Below, in pieces: positions 541 through 60,414 of a stretch of DNA of 64,000 nucleotides. The position numbers and the translations under genes were made by a program. The DNA is from a phage. The notes beneath the pieces are model-generated. The model had not been told where the DNA came from, did no database searches, and saw nothing but the letters and a program-made list of their open reading frames with translations. The stretch lies in sequence record PZ386967.1; one strand, written 5' to 3'. The first letter of the stretch is position 1, and each line of letters begins with the position of its first letter.

Positions 541-545
541 CAGAA

Positions 546-611
546 GTCCCCAACAAACGTTGGGGATTTTTACTTTTAGGGGTTTACTTCTATAATGTAA
601 ATGCGTATTAT
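546..611 (+). promoter_or_regulatory. Terminator hairpin fused to early-type promoter (TTTACT-N17-TATTAT), repeat copy 1
   Basis: CCCCAACAAACGTTGGGG hairpin plus T-run, then TTTACT, 17 nt spacer, TATTAT; about 45 bp near-identical to 903-948. Confidence 0.5.
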
Positions 612-660
612 TGAATTCATAGAGCGGGGCGTTCCTGTTCATTGAAAGAAGGTATACATT

Positions 661-16330: not shown

Positions 16331-16343
16331 AATAATTCAATAA

Positions 16344-16388
16344 AAGGGGCTTTTGCCCCTTTACTTCTTCAATATCCTTCCCTATACT
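16344..16388 (+). promoter_or_regulatory. Terminator hairpin plus early-type promoter TTTACT-N17-TATACT
   Basis: AGGGGC-tttt-GCCCCT hairpin then TTTACT, 17 nt, TATACT; coordinates approximate. Confidence 0.45.
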
Positions 16389-16436
16389 TCATTCCATAAG
16401 CAACACAACACCAACTTGAAAAGCAGGAACTACACC

Positions 16437-20932: not shown

Positions 20933-21175
20933 GTCAATACGAAATAAAGGCATATAATTTTGCTCATTATTCGCCAAAAGGAAAGGACAATGAGCAAAAT
21001 CTTTACCCCGACACATGCGCAGCTACATGAATCTCTTGGACGGCTTCGCCCACTTCGAGCGCAACACGGCTGATAAACAGAATATATTGTATGGGGCTTG
21101 ACGACAACTGTGTATAGCTCAAAGTCGTGATGTAGACTATACTGTGACCGAAGTGTTCCAGAGGCAGAAGATCTA

Positions 21176-29115: not shown

Positions 29116-29122
29116 CAAGCCA

Positions 29123-29170
29123 AAGCCCCTCAATGAGGGGCTTTACTTCTATAATCCCTGCGCTTATACT
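29123..29170 (+). promoter_or_regulatory. Terminator hairpin plus early-type promoter TTTACT-N17-TATACT
   Basis: AGCCCCTC-aat-GAGGGGCT hairpin then promoter; coordinates approximate. Confidence 0.45.
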
Positions 29171-34244: not shown

Positions 34245-34713
34245 ACGTGCTCCGATTGAGGAAGTACAACAACACGTCCTGGACCTTATGAAACACACAG
34301 TTTCTGATGCCGAAGGTAAAGTGCCGGATGAGTTCATCGGTGCGTTCGATCAGGTGGCTTTCGATACAGAGGGAGTTCCTTTGATCCAGACGATCGCTGG
34401 TATGGTTTTGTTTGAACCAAAAGCAGTAGAAAATGGCGTAATCGTCTACTCAGCCAACATCGGTGTGGACGGTGAGTCCCTGTCTCTCGAAGTTAGCAAC
34501 ATTGCTAAGTACCTGATCAAGTGTGGTTATGATCTGCAGGTTGTGACAGCCCACTACATCGATCCTCAGGGACAGATCTCCTACGGTGATGAAGCGCGCA
34601 AAGTGAAACGCCACATCGACACTACCGTGATCCTGCAGAGTATCCAACAGATGCAGAAGAACCTGGACCACCCTGGTCTGATCCTACCTGATAGCAAAAT
34701 CATCACCCGTTAA
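34222..34713 (+). CDS. Hypothetical protein
   Basis: Start trimmed to MQNEKP with GGAGAAAAG RBS. Confidence 0.45.
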   Translation: MQNEKPVERAPIEEVQQHVLDLMKHTVSDAEGKVPDEFIGAFDQVAFDTEGVPLIQTIAGMVLFEPKAVENGVIVYSANIGVDGESLSLEVSNIAKYLIKCGYDLQVVTAHYIDPQGQISYGDEARKVKRHIDTTVILQSIQQMQKNLDHPGLILPDSKIITR

Positions 34714-34764
34714 CCCGGCGTAAATAGCCCATACACCAATGAAACTTCGTTATGGGCTATTTAC

Positions 34765-35355
34765 ATGAAATATTGCGGAATCGACTACTCCTATGGCTGT
34801 CCATCCCTGTGCTTCTGGGATGACAAAGACCCTCTTGATTTTGATCATCTGCGCTTCTACGCATATTATACTGTGGAGAAGTACTGCACTCAGATTCGTC
34901 AGAATATCCTTATCATGAAGCAACCGAAGTGGGAGACCCCAGAAGAACGCTTCTATAACATCTGTAAATGGGCTGAGGCTGTCCTGTTGACTGAGAAGCC
35001 GGATGTGATCACTCTTGAAGGGTATGCTATGGGCAACTCTAAGAACTCCAACAACATATGCCAGACCGCAGAGAATACCTCACTGTTGAAGCAAGCCCTG
35101 CGCCGTAACAATTTCGACTTCCAGATCGTGACGCCATCCCATGTGAAGAAGATGTTCACCGACAAGGGCAACGCGGATAAACACGCCATGATCGCTCACT
35201 TCGAGTCGCTGTTCAATGTTAATATGCGCGGTATAATGGATATGTTGGAAGTTAAGGATCCTAAGCCAATCGATGACCTCGTGGATTCGTTTGCGATAAT
35301 GGCTTGTGGCTCTTACTTCATTGAGAATAATCCAGACTTCAACAGAGGTATATGA
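34765..35355 (+). CDS. Putative RuvC-like Holliday junction resolvase
   Basis: N-terminal GIDYS, mid TLEGYAMG and C-terminal DSFAIMA follow the RuvC D/E/D acidic-residue layout. Confidence 0.4.
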   Translation: MKYCGIDYSYGCPSLCFWDDKDPLDFDHLRFYAYYTVEKYCTQIRQNILIMKQPKWETPEERFYNICKWAEAVLLTEKPDVITLEGYAMGNSKNSNNICQTAENTSLLKQALRRNNFDFQIVTPSHVKKMFTDKGNADKHAMIAHFESLFNVNMRGIMDMLEVKDPKPIDDLVDSFAIMACGSYFIENNPDFNRGI

Positions 35356-37519: not shown

Positions 37520-38464
37520 TTATTTTCCCATCACGTCTTTCAATATCCCCAACAGGCTTGTCTTCTCCGCCGCCGTCAGGTTATCGTTGCCCATGATGTC
37601 ACGAGAGATACCTACCGAGATGCGCTCGAAGTCCTGTATGCTTATCCCAGCCAGGTTGTTTACAAGTTGGTCAAGCTGTTTGTAAGCCAGGAGAGCCTCT
37701 CCTGTGAAGTTCCCTTCTTTCACCTTGCGATAAAGCTGTCCGGCTTTTGAGGCCGCAGTTTCCCAGTCACCACTGGTAAGAGCGTCAGCAATACCGAGAG
37801 GAAGAAAATCGCTGGAAAGGCTGCGTGTTTCATATTCTGTCTCCGAAAGCACTTTGTTGTAAGAGAAAGAAATGTTGTACTGGTTGAACTGGTCTGTGGC
37901 ACCTTTATCCAGCTCAATAGAACTGAAATTTATTGGGTGAGCCTCGACGATGTAGACGCGGTGGACCACTTGATCTTCGGTGTCAAGCTGTTCAATGCAT
38001 ATGTCAGTCACGAAGTCTTCGTAATATCCCATTTTGGTGGTGTGTGGATCAAAGATCAGACTCTTCCACTTGTCCATCACAGACTTCTCATAATAGTCAT
38101 TGGCTAATAAGAATGACAAGTCGAGGTCGACGTTGGACTTGTTGTTCGGCATCTTGATGTGATTACCGTTGCTTGTCATTGGAGTGGTGTCGATACCAAC
38201 CCCTGGCAATGAGGCAACCATACACATCATCTGAAGGGAACGGGACGTCTGGTTTGTCCCTCCAAAGAAAGCGTTTACAATACGGGCTGACTGCTTAAAC
38301 AAGTCACCGAAAGATGAATTGGTTCTGTACGCCTTTCCGTCATTAGCCAGAGTGGCATTGGAGTCAAAGATCCCTGGTGGTAGAGGGATGGTCACTCTGA
38401 AGCGGTTCTTGCGCGACAAGCCCCGCTGTAATATCTGTGTGATAAAATTGCGATAGTCTTCCAC
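37520..38464 (-). CDS. Late structural protein, possibly baseplate/tail-tube associated (gp48/gp54-like); assignment uncertain
   Basis: TATAAATA octamer on the minus strand about 35 nt upstream. Confidence 0.45.
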   Translation of the reverse strand: MEDYRNFITQILQRGLSRKNRFRVTIPLPPGIFDSNATLANDGKAYRTNSSFGDLFKQSARIVNAFFGGTNQTSRSLQMMCMVASLPGVGIDTTPMTSNGNHIKMPNNKSNVDLDLSFLLANDYYEKSVMDKWKSLIFDPHTTKMGYYEDFVTDICIEQLDTEDQVVHRVYIVEAHPINFSSIELDKGATDQFNQYNISFSYNKVLSETEYETRSLSSDFLPLGIADALTSGDWETAASKAGQLYRKVKEGNFTGEALLAYKQLDQLVNNLAGISIQDFERISVGISRDIMGNDNLTAAEKTSLLGILKDVMGK

Positions 38465-38498
38465 GGTGAGGACTCCACTTAAATAAAATAACTGTTAT

Positions 38499-38517: not shown

Positions 38518-39222
38518 ATGGCAAAGAATGCAGCTGGCGAAGAAGATCCGTTGCTGTTTCCGGCCGAGATGGACGCCCCCGAGCTGGTCAAGCGTTACAT
38601 CCGCAAGTACCGTCAACACTTCGGTCCAGAGGCGAAGCGTAACATCCGCCGTTCGCATGTGTGGTTCATGGAGCGTGTGTCTAAGGACGCCAACCTGAAT
38701 CCCAACCATATGAAACAGGCGTTTGCTGATCACAAACGTCCGGTACAAGGTGTGCGGTATATAGTCGGGCGTATGTTCTATTTCAAATATGATGCTCTGA
38801 CGAAGAATGAACTACCCTACTGGGATATGTACCCTCTGGTGTTCTTCTTCAACTTTGTCAAGGGTGATGGTATCACCTTTGGAGAGAAGGGTGTGACATA
38901 CCTCTGGGGACTCAACATGCACTACCTGCCACCGAAGCTCAGGCTGTTGGTGTTTGAGGATCTGATTAAGTTGCGTAACGAACGGGCATACCGCTCAAAG
39001 ACGCGTCTGAAGCTCACCTGGGAAGCCCTGAAGCGCTTCGCCAACCATCCGCTGTACAATCACTGTGTGAAGCTGTACCGCGCCGATCAGTTCCGTTCAC
39101 AGCTTTACGAGATTGAACCACAGTACTGGGAGATCGTTCTCTTCATGCGCACGGCTCGCTTCCAGAAACAGAGCCAGATGTCTGTGTGGAAAGATGCACG
39201 TCGTATGCATAAGAAGAAATAG
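38518..39222 (+). CDS. Hypothetical protein
   Basis: 234 aa ORF with GGAG RBS. Confidence 0.5.
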   Translation: MAKNAAGEEDPLLFPAEMDAPELVKRYIRKYRQHFGPEAKRNIRRSHVWFMERVSKDANLNPNHMKQAFADHKRPVQGVRYIVGRMFYFKYDALTKNELPYWDMYPLVFFFNFVKGDGITFGEKGVTYLWGLNMHYLPPKLRLLVFEDLIKLRNERAYRSKTRLKLTWEALKRFANHPLYNHCVKLYRADQFRSQLYEIEPQYWEIVLFMRTARFQKQSQMSVWKDARRMHKKK

Positions 39223-39285: not shown

Positions 39286-40035
39286 ATGTCACAAATGTAT
39301 CGTTTGTTCGGTCTGGAGTTTACGCCAGCCCGTCTTGAAATGAAACTCCCAAACTTTGAAAAGAGCGGGTTCGAAGTCGGTTGCGTCCTGGGGTTCGATC
39401 GCAATGGCAGATCTGTCCGTGAACACAATATCTTCGACGCGCTGGGTCTGAAAGAAGACAGCGAAACCGCAATTCAGTTCAGCGAAGACATTCGTTTTGG
39501 TCATGCCGACCTGTACGATTATGTCCGTGATGTGATCGCTGGATATGAACATGCCAAAGCGCATATGAAGATGGCGACAGAGGCTTGCCTGAAGCTGGCG
39601 CATTGTCTATACTTCTTTGGTCGCAAGCGTCAGAATCTCGATATGGTATTCCCATCGGAACTGCTTGAACGCTTCTCTGAAACCGAATTCCTGCTGAAGC
39701 AAGCTGACGGAGTTGCTGTCAAATCTAGTGAAGTATTCAAACACCCGATAAATCTGGTGTCTGGGCATCTGCTGGTAGGGCGTGATCAGGTCGACCTGGC
39801 GATTCATCCGGATATGGAGTATGATCAGAACTCCTGTCGTGCCATCCACAACTACGTAGGTGCCATTCTAGAAAACTTGTACTCAGCCATGGAAGAAGTG
39901 ATGGCAGCAGAACAACAGGAAGAAGTGATTCGTCGTATCCGCGAAGATATCGAAGGGAAGGTGAAACAGGATGTTCTGGTGGGATATCTACCAGAGCATT
40001 TCCCTGAAGTTCCAAACTTCTACCTGTCCAAATAA
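39286..40035 (+). CDS. Hypothetical protein
   Basis: 249 aa ORF. Confidence 0.5.
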   Translation: MSQMYRLFGLEFTPARLEMKLPNFEKSGFEVGCVLGFDRNGRSVREHNIFDALGLKEDSETAIQFSEDIRFGHADLYDYVRDVIAGYEHAKAHMKMATEACLKLAHCLYFFGRKRQNLDMVFPSELLERFSETEFLLKQADGVAVKSSEVFKHPINLVSGHLLVGRDQVDLAIHPDMEYDQNSCRAIHNYVGAILENLYSAMEEVMAAEQQEEVIRRIREDIEGKVKQDVLVGYLPEHFPEVPNFYLSK

Positions 40036-40049
40036 CTCCACTGTGAGAG

Positions 40050-40331
40050 GTGTGTATGAAACGTTATCTGAAGCTGACGACTGTCCTTGAGTCGATCATA
40101 GAGTATTTCATCATGCAACACCTCCGCGCCGACAACATGCATTTAGACGGTTGCCTGACGTATGACCACAAGATCATTGTCCATTCTGTTGAAGTGGTGG
40201 ATGATGATCTGATGATTGCAAATGTAGAACACTGTCTGTTTGATGAGTCGGTTGATGCGTACTGCCAACCACGGTTCGCAAAAGTCGAGCTAACAAATTG
40301 TTGGCCGCCGGAAATGGTTTTTCTATATTGA
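40050..40331 (+). CDS. Hypothetical protein
   Basis: 93 aa ORF. Confidence 0.4.
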   Translation: MCMKRYLKLTTVLESIIEYFIMQHLRADNMHLDGCLTYDHKIIVHSVEVVDDDLMIANVEHCLFDESVDAYCQPRFAKVELTNCWPPEMVFLY

Positions 40332-40423
40332 CGTAGAAAGTTAATATTCACGCAAGTTCGCGCTCCACTTGGTCGCGCACCTTATAACACTAAGGTGTTA
40401 ACTTTCTTTTCAATAAAAAGTAG

Positions 40424-40452
40424 TTTACATCTATGAAAATGCAGTATATTAT
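40424..40452 (+). promoter_or_regulatory. Early-type promoter TTTACA-N17-TATTAT
   Basis: Near-consensus sigma70-like hexamers with 17 nt spacing upstream of 40521; coordinates approximate. Confidence 0.5.
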
Positions 40453-40520
40453 GTTCTCACTACACAGTCAGAACAACAATATGCCGCGGATACGGTCTTA
40501 ATAACGAAAGGGTTTTTATT

Positions 40521-41360
40521 ATGTCATATATTCTTCATGTGGATTCTGGAACCAAAATTGAAATTGAAGGCAAAGACGTTGCTGCTATTCAGGCTGAAAT
40601 CAAAGAAGCAGGTCTGATCATCGGAAACGTTACCCTGCGCCGTATGGTTGAAGGTGTTCTTCAGGCTGCCAACGGCTTCGAACTGATTGAAGGTCTGAGC
40701 GCCGAAGAGAAGGAAGAAACTCAGCAGGCTCTGGCGCAAGCCCAAGAGCAAGCCCAAGCTGAAGTATCCCTGAAAGTCGCTGAAACCGTTGATGCTGAAG
40801 CACCGATCTCTGCCGATGCATGTGAAGCCCCAGTGTCCGACGCCCCGGTAGACGCGGTTGAAGATGCAGTCAACGCGGCGCTGGAAGAAGGCAATCAGCC
40901 GTCCGACGCGAAAATCGGTTCCTTAGCGTCTTCTATGCTGAAAGAAGCATCGAAGGGTAAGACCCTGACCCCGCAGGCAGCGCTGGTAGAGCGTAAACGC
41001 CGTCACACCAAACGTGAGGAAATGGTTGACTTGGCTCGCGCTTCTAATCACGGTCCGGTCTTGGCGGCGATTGAAGCTGGTGTTGTCCCCGGCGTGTTCC
41101 TGAGCTACGTGAACCCAGACATGCGTTGGTTCCAGTTCCCGGTCACCGAACTGGCTAACCCTGAAAACCTTCACGCCCGCACCAATACGTATGTCGACGT
41201 TGCGCCTATCGTTTCCGGTGGCTGGGGCTTCAGTCTGTACGTGAACGGCAAGTCCTTCACCAAACGTCAGAAGATCAAAGAGTCTGATGCTGAGTCTCTG
41301 GTTAAGGCGATCAATGAATGGCTTCCACAGGCTCTGGCTGAAGCGAAAGCTGCTGCGTAA
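40521..41360 (+). CDS. Hypothetical protein with acidic Q/A/E-rich linker
   Basis: 279 aa ORF after strong promoter. Confidence 0.5.
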   Translation: MSYILHVDSGTKIEIEGKDVAAIQAEIKEAGLIIGNVTLRRMVEGVLQAANGFELIEGLSAEEKEETQQALAQAQEQAQAEVSLKVAETVDAEAPISADACEAPVSDAPVDAVEDAVNAALEEGNQPSDAKIGSLASSMLKEASKGKTLTPQAALVERKRRHTKREEMVDLARASNHGPVLAAIEAGVVPGVFLSYVNPDMRWFQFPVTELANPENLHARTNTYVDVAPIVSGGWGFSLYVNGKSFTKRQKIKESDAESLVKAINEWLPQALAEAKAAA

Positions 41361-41434
41361 TTTAAGTTCAGAAACTGTTCAAAAGATGAAGGGGCTGCTA
41401 TAATAGCAGCTCCTTTTGTTTATTGGAGCAGTTT

Positions 41435-48452: not shown

Positions 48453-49658
48453 ATGAGGCTGGAAATGAACGTCAAAACATTCAATATTCCGATCGACAAT
48501 GAAGGGTTGGTAGTTGAGCGACTGAAGAAGCTCGAGCGCACTGCCGAAAGGTTGGGTGTTCCGTTTCCGACTGTGACTTATGGTGAACCCTTCAAAACCC
48601 ACACCCGCGACTTCACTGGTGAGATCCTTACTCACTGGTGGAAACCTGTTACTCTCGAAGGCGAAGGCATTGACCGCCCCGTCTCTTATGGTGGCTGGAA
48701 GATCATCGGTCAGTTCAATCACGAATATCCAAAGGTTATTCTTAACCGCCTGTCCGACAACATCAATCCTGACTTCATCCGTCACTTCGAGACAGAGAAC
48801 GTCTCTTGGTGTCAGCATTGCAATCTAGTCATCCGTCGCAAGAACACGTATGTGATTGAAAATGAGGAAACGCATACCCAGATGCTGATTGGTAGCACCT
48901 GTATGCATCATTATGTGCCTCATCAGAAGTCCCTTGACGCGATTATGTCTTACTATCTGGAAATCCAAGAGTTCTTCATGCCAGACGAGGACGACCCAGA
49001 GGGTATATATCGCGTCCAAAATGAGCGCTTCGTCGACACCCACAGTTTCCTGCGCGCATGCTTCCAGGTGATGCTAGCAGGCGTGGATATCAAGTCTGAA
49101 CTGTTTGACAAAGTACTGGGCTATGTCCGGTCTCATCAGAAACCAAAAGCAGGTTCCGATGAAGAGTATTTCGTAAACAAGGCACACGAATACCGTGAAG
49201 ATGCCGAGTCGGAAATGTACCATATGAAGCTTTTCATCAGTGCGCTGTCCGAATCTAATGAGTTCAATGTTCGCCTGAAACGCATGTGTGAACCCGGCTA
49301 TCACCTCATCAAGGATAACAACACAGTCCGCTGGGGTGCCAAGAAGTATTACGATTACATCCATCGTCCTCGTACTGACCGCAAGGCGGAGAACAAATGG
49401 GTGGGTGAAGTCGGTGAAATGCTGGAAGTGCAAGTCAGGTTCGACAAGCGCACCTTCCTCTTCTCCAATGAATATGGTGATAGCTACCTGTTTACTTTCA
49501 AAACAGCAGAAGGCAATACAATTACCTGGAAGACCTCTTATATGGATACAGAGTTCTTGCAGGGTGATATGATCATCCGTGGTCGTGTTAAAGAACTGAC
49601 TGAGTACAACGGCGTTAAACAAACTCAGGTCACCAGAGCTAAATTGAGGAAGTTATGA
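48453..49658 (+). CDS. Hypothetical protein (402 aa) with Cys/His cluster
   Basis: Start trimmed to MRLEMNVK; CQHCN ... CMHH region suggests metal binding. Confidence 0.5.
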   Translation: MRLEMNVKTFNIPIDNEGLVVERLKKLERTAERLGVPFPTVTYGEPFKTHTRDFTGEILTHWWKPVTLEGEGIDRPVSYGGWKIIGQFNHEYPKVILNRLSDNINPDFIRHFETENVSWCQHCNLVIRRKNTYVIENEETHTQMLIGSTCMHHYVPHQKSLDAIMSYYLEIQEFFMPDEDDPEGIYRVQNERFVDTHSFLRACFQVMLAGVDIKSELFDKVLGYVRSHQKPKAGSDEEYFVNKAHEYREDAESEMYHMKLFISALSESNEFNVRLKRMCEPGYHLIKDNNTVRWGAKKYYDYIHRPRTDRKAENKWVGEVGEMLEVQVRFDKRTFLFSNEYGDSYLFTFKTAEGNTITWKTSYMDTEFLQGDMIIRGRVKELTEYNGVKQTQVTRAKLRKL

Positions 49659-49770
49659 ATTTGATTGAGTTTGTTCTGAAGTCGTTCGCCTTCGGTCTGA
49701 TAGCATGTGGGATGATTACAGCTATGCTTCTCATCATAGCCCTGGTCATCCCCTTTAAGAGGAAACGTTG

Positions 49771-60201: not shown

Positions 60202-60414
60202 TTAACTTCTTTTGTGGCCAGGGGCGTAGCAGGTATGCCTGTCGCGCCCGATTTGCCAGCCGTCTGCTCGCGCCTGTTTGACACAATCACCCCAAGTCTC
60301 ACCAGTGTATTGTTTGAACCCGCACTTGGGGTGATGCTCTTCCCAAGCCCAACTGCATGCCTTGCAATCTGAGCATTCACAATAAAGATCGATGGTGTAA
60401 CCTGAAATGATCAT
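60202..60414 (-). CDS. Cys-rich small protein
   Basis: 8 Cys in 70 aa. Confidence 0.4.
   Translation of the reverse strand: MIISGYTIDLYCECSDCKACSWAWEEHHPKCGFKQYTGETWGDCVKQARADGWQIGRDRHTCYAPGHKRS

Follow-up and report, generated by a model that had tools for sequence, protein, structure and literature searches.

Hairpins at the probable end of a late operon joined to an early promoter: a conserved gene boundary in Ackermannviridae phages

Promoter-early stem-loop (PeSL) cassettes are known from the T4-type phages RB49 and phi1 (Arbiol et al. 2010, PMC2839356). Terminator and promoter activity has been shown for them, they have been linked to insertions and deletions, and PeSL-mediated shuffling of open reading frames (ORFs) has been proposed in T4-type phages (PMC2839356). 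The early promoters of T4 carry an A/T-rich UP region at -40 to -60 (PMC2988021). Among the Ackermannviridae, the paper on phage CBA120 noted no obvious MotA, AsiA or other middle-mode transcription regulator, and its authors did not succeed in identifying early promoters by informatics. Here a gap between two genes of such a phage is compared with these systems, with intrinsic terminators and with the stabilising hairpins found at the 3′ ends of transcripts.

The stretch of DNA analysed (64,000 nt from record PZ386967.1, referred to as the window) represents an Agtrevirus-like phage of the family Ackermannviridae. The 2-kb neighbourhood of the gap shares 99% identity with Enterobacter phage fGh-Ecl02 and 96-98% with a cluster of Escherichia phages; the figure falls to about 91% for the Agtrevirus phages Ag3 and SKML-39 and to about 85% for the Limestonevirus group of Dickeya phages. 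All of these relatives are Ackermannviridae. The locus is syntenic with Ag3, LIMEstone1 and ECML-4, and the order of genes is that of LIMEstone1, in which a late promoter is annotated before gp2 and a putative early promoter at the homologous site. The genes and signals that surround the gap are these:

37520-38464, - strand, gp54
about 38479-38485, TTAAATA late-promoter motif, upstream of gp2
38518-39222, + strand, gp2 DNA end protector, with the TTAAATA motif ahead of it
39286-40035, + strand, 249-aa ORF (phrog_4253)
40050-40331, + strand, 93-aa small ORF (phrog_4562)
40521-41360, + strand, 279-aa ORF (phrog_3905)
41388-41416, canonical terminator that closes the 279-aa gene
downstream of the 279-aa ORF, a 5-hmdU DNA kinase (PF18748, E = 1.7e-108) and then a thymidylate-synthase homologue

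The 93-aa ORF is the last of the + strand run formed with gp2 and the 249-aa ORF, and the element considered here lies 4-80 nt past its TGA. The 279-aa product is an acidic protein of phrog_3905 that has no Pfam match and is probably an abundant early protein; its gene stands behind the best promoter match in this part of the window, has its own strong terminator, and immediately precedes the genes for the 5-hmdU DNA kinase and the thymidylate-synthase-like protein.

A preliminary description of the gap had reported nested inverted repeats ahead of a strong early promoter, and every feature that it named was recovered from the sequence where it had been placed. The outer repeat consists of AGAAAGTTAA (40335-40344) and TTAACTTTCT (40398-40407) on the + strand, complementary at 10 of 10 positions with 53 nt between the arms. 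Within it are a G+C-rich core, GCGCTCCACTTGGTCGCGC, that starts at 40360, and an inner hairpin in which CACCTTA (40378-40384) pairs with TAAGGTG (40391-40397) at 7 of 7 positions around the loop TAACAC. A T-rich run (40403-40410), an A-run (40415-40419) and a near-consensus promoter, TTTACA-17-TATTAT (40424-40452; 10 of 12 matches), follow. With G40377 and T40398 the inner hairpin reaches 8 bp (-8.9 kcal/mol) and is, in the window, the hairpin nearest to the T-run; closing the outer stem encloses a multibranch loop. Comparison with relatives, discussed below, divides the region as follows:

40319-40331, + strand, left conserved block, TTTTCTATATTGA (TTTTCAATATTGA in relatives), holding the last codons and the TGA of the 93-aa ORF
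40324-40348, + strand, hairpin A, TATATTGAC (40324-40332) pairing with GTTAATATT (40340-40348), 8-9 bp including G·U
40360-40380, + strand, hairpin B (the G+C-rich core), GCGCTCCAC-TTG-GTCGCGCAC, degraded in the window (-8.2 kcal/mol)
40385-40400, + strand, hairpin C, TAACAC-TAAG-GTGTTA, of the general form TAACAC-NNNN-GTGTTA directly before the T-run
40403-40423, + strand, T-rich run and A/T block: TTTCTTTT (40403-40410), CAAT, A-run (40415-40419), GTAG
40424-40452, + strand, early sigma-70-type promoter, -35 TTTACA (40424-40429), -10 TATTAT (40447-40452) or TATATT (40445-40450)
40452-40475, no strand assigned, inverted repeat TGTTCTCACT / AGTCAGAACA, 9 of 10 matches, TGTTCT-N12-AGAACA, spanning the -10 and the inferred start
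40459-40523, + strand, leader of the 279-aa ORF, inferred 5′ untranslated region, unstructured (z = +1.5)

The reading given in the preliminary description, of a gap more elaborate than a simple terminator, is partly supported: there is more than one hairpin, and structure is above chance in the window and in three other lineages. Folded as + strand RNA, the 96 nt from 40325 to 40420 give -26.4 kcal/mol, compared with -13.3 +/- 2.6 for shuffled sequences (z = -5.1), an energy reached by none of 200 shuffles; the - strand of the same interval gives z = -4.1. Perfect 10-bp inverted repeats with a gap of at most 60 nt account for 19 k-mer hits (about 9 loci) in the window, and about 3.9 k-mer hits are expected from Markov resamples. 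What exceeds chance is the structure across the entire region and not the outer repeat by itself. Further perfect inverted repeats, 10-14 bp long and with 17-38 nt between their arms, are located at 34720-34768, 20957-21002, 60286-60337 and 49618-49675, the first of them with 14 bp and lying between an ORF end at 34713 and an ORF start at 34765.

When the 201-nt gap was used as a BLAST query, 219 phage records were matched, at one place each and all with at least 80% query coverage. Ten of these are at least 99% identical, those of Agtrevirus and Limestonevirus are at about 90-95%, and 174 lie in the band from 60 to 80%, which among the matches listed means about 72-74% identity and nearly always Kuttervirus. 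Alignment A1 was built from 19 distinct versions of the element, 110-111 nt long, from GTTTTCAATA to the -35 hexamer, and this length is constant in two subfamilies (Cvivirinae and Aglimvirinae). The element is 86.7% identical to that of LIMEstone1 and 74.5% identical to that of ECML-4; the corresponding values are 82% and 53% for the 249-aa ORF, 74% and 66% for the 279-aa ORF, and 87.5% and 79% for the core gene gp2, and the small ORF is 64% identical to that of ECML-4. By this measure the non-coding element is about as conserved as a core gene. Excess foldability is seen in four lineages (z = -4.6 for the window, -4.2 for LIMEstone1, -3.6 for ECML-4 and -2.8 for P46FS4). The element is single-copy: within the 64 kb a covariance model of it matches its own locus alone, and its block motifs do not recur above chance elsewhere in the same 64 kb. 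It is absent from 185,579 bacterial and archaeal genomes, the pattern scans returning just syntenic Ackermannviridae sites, and a metagenome scan yielded 2 further loci only.

The region is kept across the two Ackermannviridae subfamilies, but conservation does not extend to the particular nested fold. A perfect 10-bp outer repeat is confined to the window's near-identical cluster (the window, two metagenomic copies and phage ZQ1), because an extra T at alignment column 86 and an A at column 17 are absent elsewhere. Most Aglimvirinae have a bulged 8-bp version of the outer stem, and Kuttervirus retains just GTTAA/TTAAC. When the nested structure is imposed on the alignment 77% of cells pair, and 6 of the 10 outer pairs fail in all Kuttervirus. 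The CACCTTA/TAAGGTG hairpin is limited to the window cluster and SKML-39, with a partial form in Ag3. A one-base insertion together with a substitution would have turned the GTTAA/TTAAC complementarity into a perfect 10-bp stem, and the nested repeat is best read from the alignment as a lineage-specific re-pairing of conserved blocks.

The fold that recurs among relatives is a series of tandem hairpins. In 14 of the 19 variants the lowest-energy + strand fold holds hairpin B followed by hairpin C, and in 12 of those 14 hairpin A is added to give three tandem hairpins; the tandem model pairs 88% of cells. The statistics of this model are no better than those of shuffles, because stems A and C never vary. 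The stem of hairpin C is invariant in 19 of 19 variants around a tetraloop of TAAG, GAAG, GATG or AGAA, and in most lineages hairpin C gains 2-4 extra pairs and is followed directly by TTCTTTTC. It competes with the inner hairpin and the outer stem. Both conformations are available in every lineage, namely the tandem hairpins or a long-range pairing of GTTAA..CAC with GTGTTAAC, and in LIMEstone1 the lowest-energy fold is the tandem form and the centroid is the long-range form.

Hairpin A is part of the lowest-energy fold in relatives, where AATATTGAC pairs with GTTAATATT, and in the window the outer stem takes its place. Hairpin A overlaps the end of the small upstream ORF, its stem sequence is invariant and so shows no covariation, and in L022 and ChubbyThor its pairing is disrupted. 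The stop codon of the small ORF is a TAA inside GTTAA in Kuttervirus, Ag3, SKML-39 and MK-13; in the window cluster an extra T shifts the frame, so that the 93-aa ORF stops at the TGA at 40329-40331, 13 nt before that TAA. The ORF is about 50 nt longer in Taipeivirus-like phages, which have TAT in place of the TAA, and its codons align there with the first ~35 nt of the element, so the sequence of hairpin A, like that of the outer stem's 5′ arm, is coding or formerly coding. The 93-aa ORF is missing in Limestonevirus, EspM4VN, pSal-SNUABM-02, CAU_YEP3 and ChubbyThor, yet the element is kept, and all ORF-less genomes retain everything from GTTTTCAATA onward. Most substitutions in the 5′ block occur in ORF-less genomes (L022, ChubbyThor, pSal-SNUABM-02 and CAU_YEP3), as does every substitution that breaks the pairing of hairpin A, and the case for hairpin A as a selected structure is weakened accordingly. 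A direct repeat, TTTTC(A/T)ATA, brackets the hairpins at 40319-40327 and 40407-40415 (the second copy being TTTTCAATA) with a spacing of 88 nt; this bracketing is found in all Kuttervirus and Aglimvirinae copies, and the pair could be an insertion relic or a deletion substrate.

Hairpin B carries the evidence for a constraint on pairing. It contains CCCC/GGGG and is perfect in LIMEstone1 and Kamild, the LIMEstone1 form being GCGCCCCGC-TTG-GCGGGGCGC with 9 bp and -20.9 kcal/mol. In Kuttervirus it has 6 bp (-7.2 kcal/mol), with U-A at pair 5, G-C at pair 6 and, at pair 1, G·U or in one genome A-U; its triloop differs among near-identical genomes (TAC, TTC or ATA). In many Agtrevirus pair 5 is U·G and pair 7 is mismatched. 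The states observed are thus G-C, G·U and A-U at pair 1, C-G, U·G and U-A at pair 5, and C-G and G-C at pair 6. Within the window cluster pair 8 runs from G-C through G·U to A-U in the window itself, and this last step is all that separates the window from its nearest relative. The loops are variable too (TTG, CAA, TAC, TTC and ATA). Compensatory or wobble-mediated change is accordingly seen at four pairs in a structure-guided alignment that comprises only 19 related sequences, and for a sample so small and so related these paths of substitution are suggestive of what selection for RNA pairing produces. Since the wobble intermediates can pair only on the + strand, a + strand RNA at the untranslated 3′ terminus of the gp2 operon is favoured; the same wobbles are mismatches in a cruciform and in a - strand RNA, which argues against both. 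As to the covariation that the preliminary description proposed as a check, hairpin B shows a compensatory pattern in that structure-guided alignment only, and for the structure as a whole the measures over 19 variants are not above those of shuffles and are uninformative, most stems being invariant. As a separate observation, the loop of Kamild (L048) at A1 columns 51-53 is CAA where that of LIMEstone1 (L001) is TTG, its exact reverse complement; such a change within a perfect 9-bp palindrome is the signature of hairpin inversion at the DNA level.

The promoter is the sole occurrence of TTTACA-N16-18-TATWAT in the 64 kb, against 0.06 expected, and it shares the family sequence GTTTAC(T/A)TCTAT with other promoters of the window. 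We infer a transcription start at about 40459, and AAAGGG (40507-40512) is likely the ribosome-binding site for the ATG at 40521. Counted from this start the A/T block lies at about -56 to -36. The T-run and A-run match the consensus of UP elements, and their position fits the UP region of T4 early promoters (PMC2988021). Columns 88-111 of A1 (T-run, CAAT, A-run, GT(A/G)G and TTTACA) are invariant in the 19 variants except for column 104 (A/G), and the block of T-run, A-run and -35 is recognisable in Taipeivirus-like phages too. It is proposed that the A/T block doubles as a terminator tail and a UP-like element. The so-called 'uber' UP-element early promoters of T4 (Hinton 2010, PMC2988021) share GTTTACA, TATTAT and the 17-nt spacer with this promoter, as well as T- and A-tracts at about -56 to -40, which here are invariant across genera; unlike the T4 promoters, the one described here has no TGn extended -10, and the hosts concerned span Escherichia, Salmonella, Dickeya and Enterobacter. 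The inverted repeat at 40452-40475 may be an operator and not an RNA hairpin, because its left arm would be mostly untranscribed. In Kuttervirus the sequence ATGTTC-N13-GAACAT stands at the matching place (ECML-4, L002, about 2629-2655).

The gap is most likely an ordinary kind of phage gene boundary, in which hairpins close a late operon upstream of a strong early promoter. In its specific form, in which the 3′ structure or weak terminator of a late operon is joined with the UP element and promoter that serve an early gene, this account is given a somewhat better than even chance of being correct. Transcripts would start at the late promoter before gp2, traverse gp2, the 249-aa ORF and the 93-aa ORF, and end in a structured 3′ untranslated region made up of hairpin B and then a weaker A/U-rich hairpin that abuts the U-rich tract. 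This second hairpin would be C in most lineages and CACCUUA/UAAGGUG in the window. Jointly the hairpins would most likely act as a weak intrinsic terminator or attenuator, and a further role may be to shield the upstream mRNA from 3′ exonucleases, while the T-run and A-run would form the UP-like block of the GTTTACA-17-TATTAT promoter that drives the 279-aa gene. We infer the late and early timing classes from these signals; no transcriptome of any Ackermannviridae phage was found in the literature searched.

Nearly all the lineages sampled have a hairpin immediately before the U-rich tract, although it is weak in Ag3. In the window it is GCACCUUA-UAACAC-UAAGGUGU (-8.9 kcal/mol), the other Aglimvirinae have hairpin C there, bulged at one base, and Kuttervirus has a hairpin C lengthened by GUUG/CAAC; in Taipeivirus-like phages hairpins B and C are missing, and an A/U-rich hairpin of unrelated sequence stands before TTTTT. 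The inner hairpin is followed by TTAACTTTCTTTTC and the outer stem by TTTCAAT, the T-run being invariant in the 19 variants, and the - strand lacks a T-run behind the structure. With 6-10 bp, 3 G-C pairs and about -6 to -9 kcal/mol the tail hairpin is weak, and a C interrupts the U-tract; the strongest hairpin (B) is without a U-tract of its own. A terminator scan flags 40377-40398, with 5 matches of such quality found in the region where 4.2 are expected, and among the 31 terminators annotated by the LIMEstone1 authors none is at the homologous site. Because the signal is weak, unannotated and matched at chance frequency, it is read as a weak terminator or attenuator, to which B may contribute, or as a protector of the 3′ end.

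As in intrinsic and tandem-hairpin terminators, a co-oriented hairpin and a U-rich tract lie past the last stop codon of the operon, and the position of the hairpin is kept while its sequence turns over between lineages. It differs from the usual intrinsic terminator in that the tail hairpin is weak and A/U-rich, the U-tract is C-interrupted, B is tailless and the window stem is multibranched. With REP-like and other 3′ stabilising hairpins it shares a G+C hairpin without a U-tract in a 3′ untranslated region, whose pairing is conserved and whose loop is free; the element is nevertheless single-copy and has no REP similarity.

The sequence invariance of stems A and C would fit recognition by a protein too, and the first alternative to the late-operon reading is that the blocks act as double-stranded DNA, either as protein sites that modulate the early promoter or in recombination of the sort proposed for PeSL stem-loops. 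The blocks concerned would be the direct repeats AATATTGACG/AATATTCACG, 19 bp apart, together with GTTAA/TTAAC and TAACAC/GTGTTA. This is unlikely, yet several observations are consistent with it: stems A and C are conserved by sequence and not by compensation, the blocks lie at about -60 to -135 from the inferred start, which may place them in the range of upstream activators, and the loop of the Kamild hairpin B is inverted (TTG to CAA). The neighbouring small ORF has been gained or lost with the left edge always kept from GTTTTCAATA, as would fit the link between PeSLs and indels (PMC2839356). However, the motifs do not recur above chance in the 64 kb, and an element present in single copy leaves no room for PeSL-type exchange within one genome. 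No convincing match by eye to the IHF, Fis, CRP, ArcA, LexA or DnaA consensus was seen. Hairpin B tolerates G·T, which is mismatched in a cruciform and on the other strand, and the protein-binding cruciform suggested in the preliminary description is disfavoured for this G+C hairpin, since its variants pass via G·U pairs that only the + strand has.

An RNA that is functional in itself, whether a stable fragment of ~60-90 nt from the 3′ end of the late operon or a cis-acting element that does more than terminate, is quite improbable. The + strand pairing signature in hairpin B points towards it, as do the invariant stems with variable loops, the two mutually exclusive conformations available in every lineage, and a constant length of 110-111 nt with 74-87% identity across two subfamilies, above that of the adjacent ORFs. 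Small RNAs derived from 3′ untranslated regions end in a hairpin plus U-tract, and the element ends likewise. On the other side, 40332-40520 has no Rfam match even at E = 10, no promoter of its own is conserved, statistically supported covariation is lacking outside hairpin B, the 5′ block is coding in most relatives with most of its substitutions in ORF-less genomes, and hairpins B and C are missing from Taipeivirus-like phages. The narrower proposal, that B, C and the upstream block make up a discrete RNA of ~60-90 nt or a switchable element of the 3′ untranslated region, changing between the tandem and the long-range form, with a regulatory role, is a slimmer prospect still; were it true, the RNA would be conserved in Cvivirinae and Aglimvirinae and would act between late structural genes and an early thymidine-hypermodification cluster. 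The small RNA gene standing alone that the preliminary description envisaged is left unsupported, with neither an Rfam match nor a conserved promoter.

Least probable of all is that nothing upstream of the UP element has a function, so that the hairpins would combine a relic of the 3′ end of the small ORF with chance repeats, conserved through recent recombination in co-infections; the codon alignment of the first ~35 nt with the longer Taipeivirus-like ORF (TAT vs TAA at the stop), the few 10-bp inverted repeats expected by chance per 64 kb, the overall covariation not above shuffles and an ORF-less allele common to Limestonevirus and some Agtrevirus, which suggests exchange, are all compatible with this, but it is opposed by the folding of four lineages at z = -2.8 to -4.6, by the compensatory change at four hairpin B pairs, by 74.5% identity at constant length between subfamilies where adjacent ORFs have 53-66%, and by the recurrence of a hairpin ahead of the T-run, also with unrelated sequence, in nearly all lineages sampled.

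Other candidates were rejected. There is no tRNA or tmRNA in the window, and no TAAATA late-promoter motif within the element. A sigma-70 promoter for the element itself, TTGGCC-17-TATATT (40301-40329, 9 of 12), has its -35 replaced by unrelated sequence in ORF-less relatives; a - strand terminator or RNA would have no T-run after the structure, and wobbles would become mismatches. A dispersed or miniature inverted-repeat mobile element is rejected although inverted repeats and a flanking direct repeat exist, since the element is single-copy and occurs only at the syntenic Ackermannviridae site. In a weak test for a replication origin, GC skew was unchanged around 40.4 kb.

Simpler arrangements of hairpin and promoter are encountered elsewhere in the window, where other promoter-like sites share GTTTACTTCTAT directly behind hairpins with G/C tracts. 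Two cassettes at 545-616 and 903-973 consist of TCCCCAAC-AAAC-GTTGGGGA, a T-run, AGGGGTTTACTTC and then TATTAT; they are 76% identical over 55 nt, lie 357 nt apart and flank a 74-aa ORF (661-885), which is the arrangement proposed for PeSL ORF shuffling. Junctions of a hairpin with GTTTACT also occur at ~16339-16390 and ~29122-29170.

PeSLs and the boundary at 40.4 kb have in common a sigma-70-like early promoter, an A/T block upstream of the -35, a stem-loop that often has C- and G-tracts, a position between a stop codon and the next start codon, and a neighbouring small ORF that is present or absent among relatives (here phrog_4562). The simpler cassettes of the window (545-616, 903-973, ~16339-16390 and ~29122-29170) extend this likeness, sharing with the element only the promoter part. 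The element differs from PeSLs in being single-copy and syntenic, whereas PeSLs form a dispersed repeat family; it has two or three hairpins over ~90 nt in place of one, and its G+C hairpin lies ~45 nt upstream of the -35, where that of a PeSL is adjacent or overlapping.

The locus is a further example of a known phage regulatory cassette, not a new kind of system. The regulation of early transcription in ViI-like phages (Ackermannviridae) is largely unmapped, and this locus presents a conserved early promoter with a UP-like block and, upstream of it, an RNA structure whose G+C hairpin appears to be constrained in its pairing. It offers a good case for the mapping of transcript ends in phages that are used therapeutically, and it would indicate that PeSL-like cassettes of hairpin plus promoter extend past the T4-type phages.
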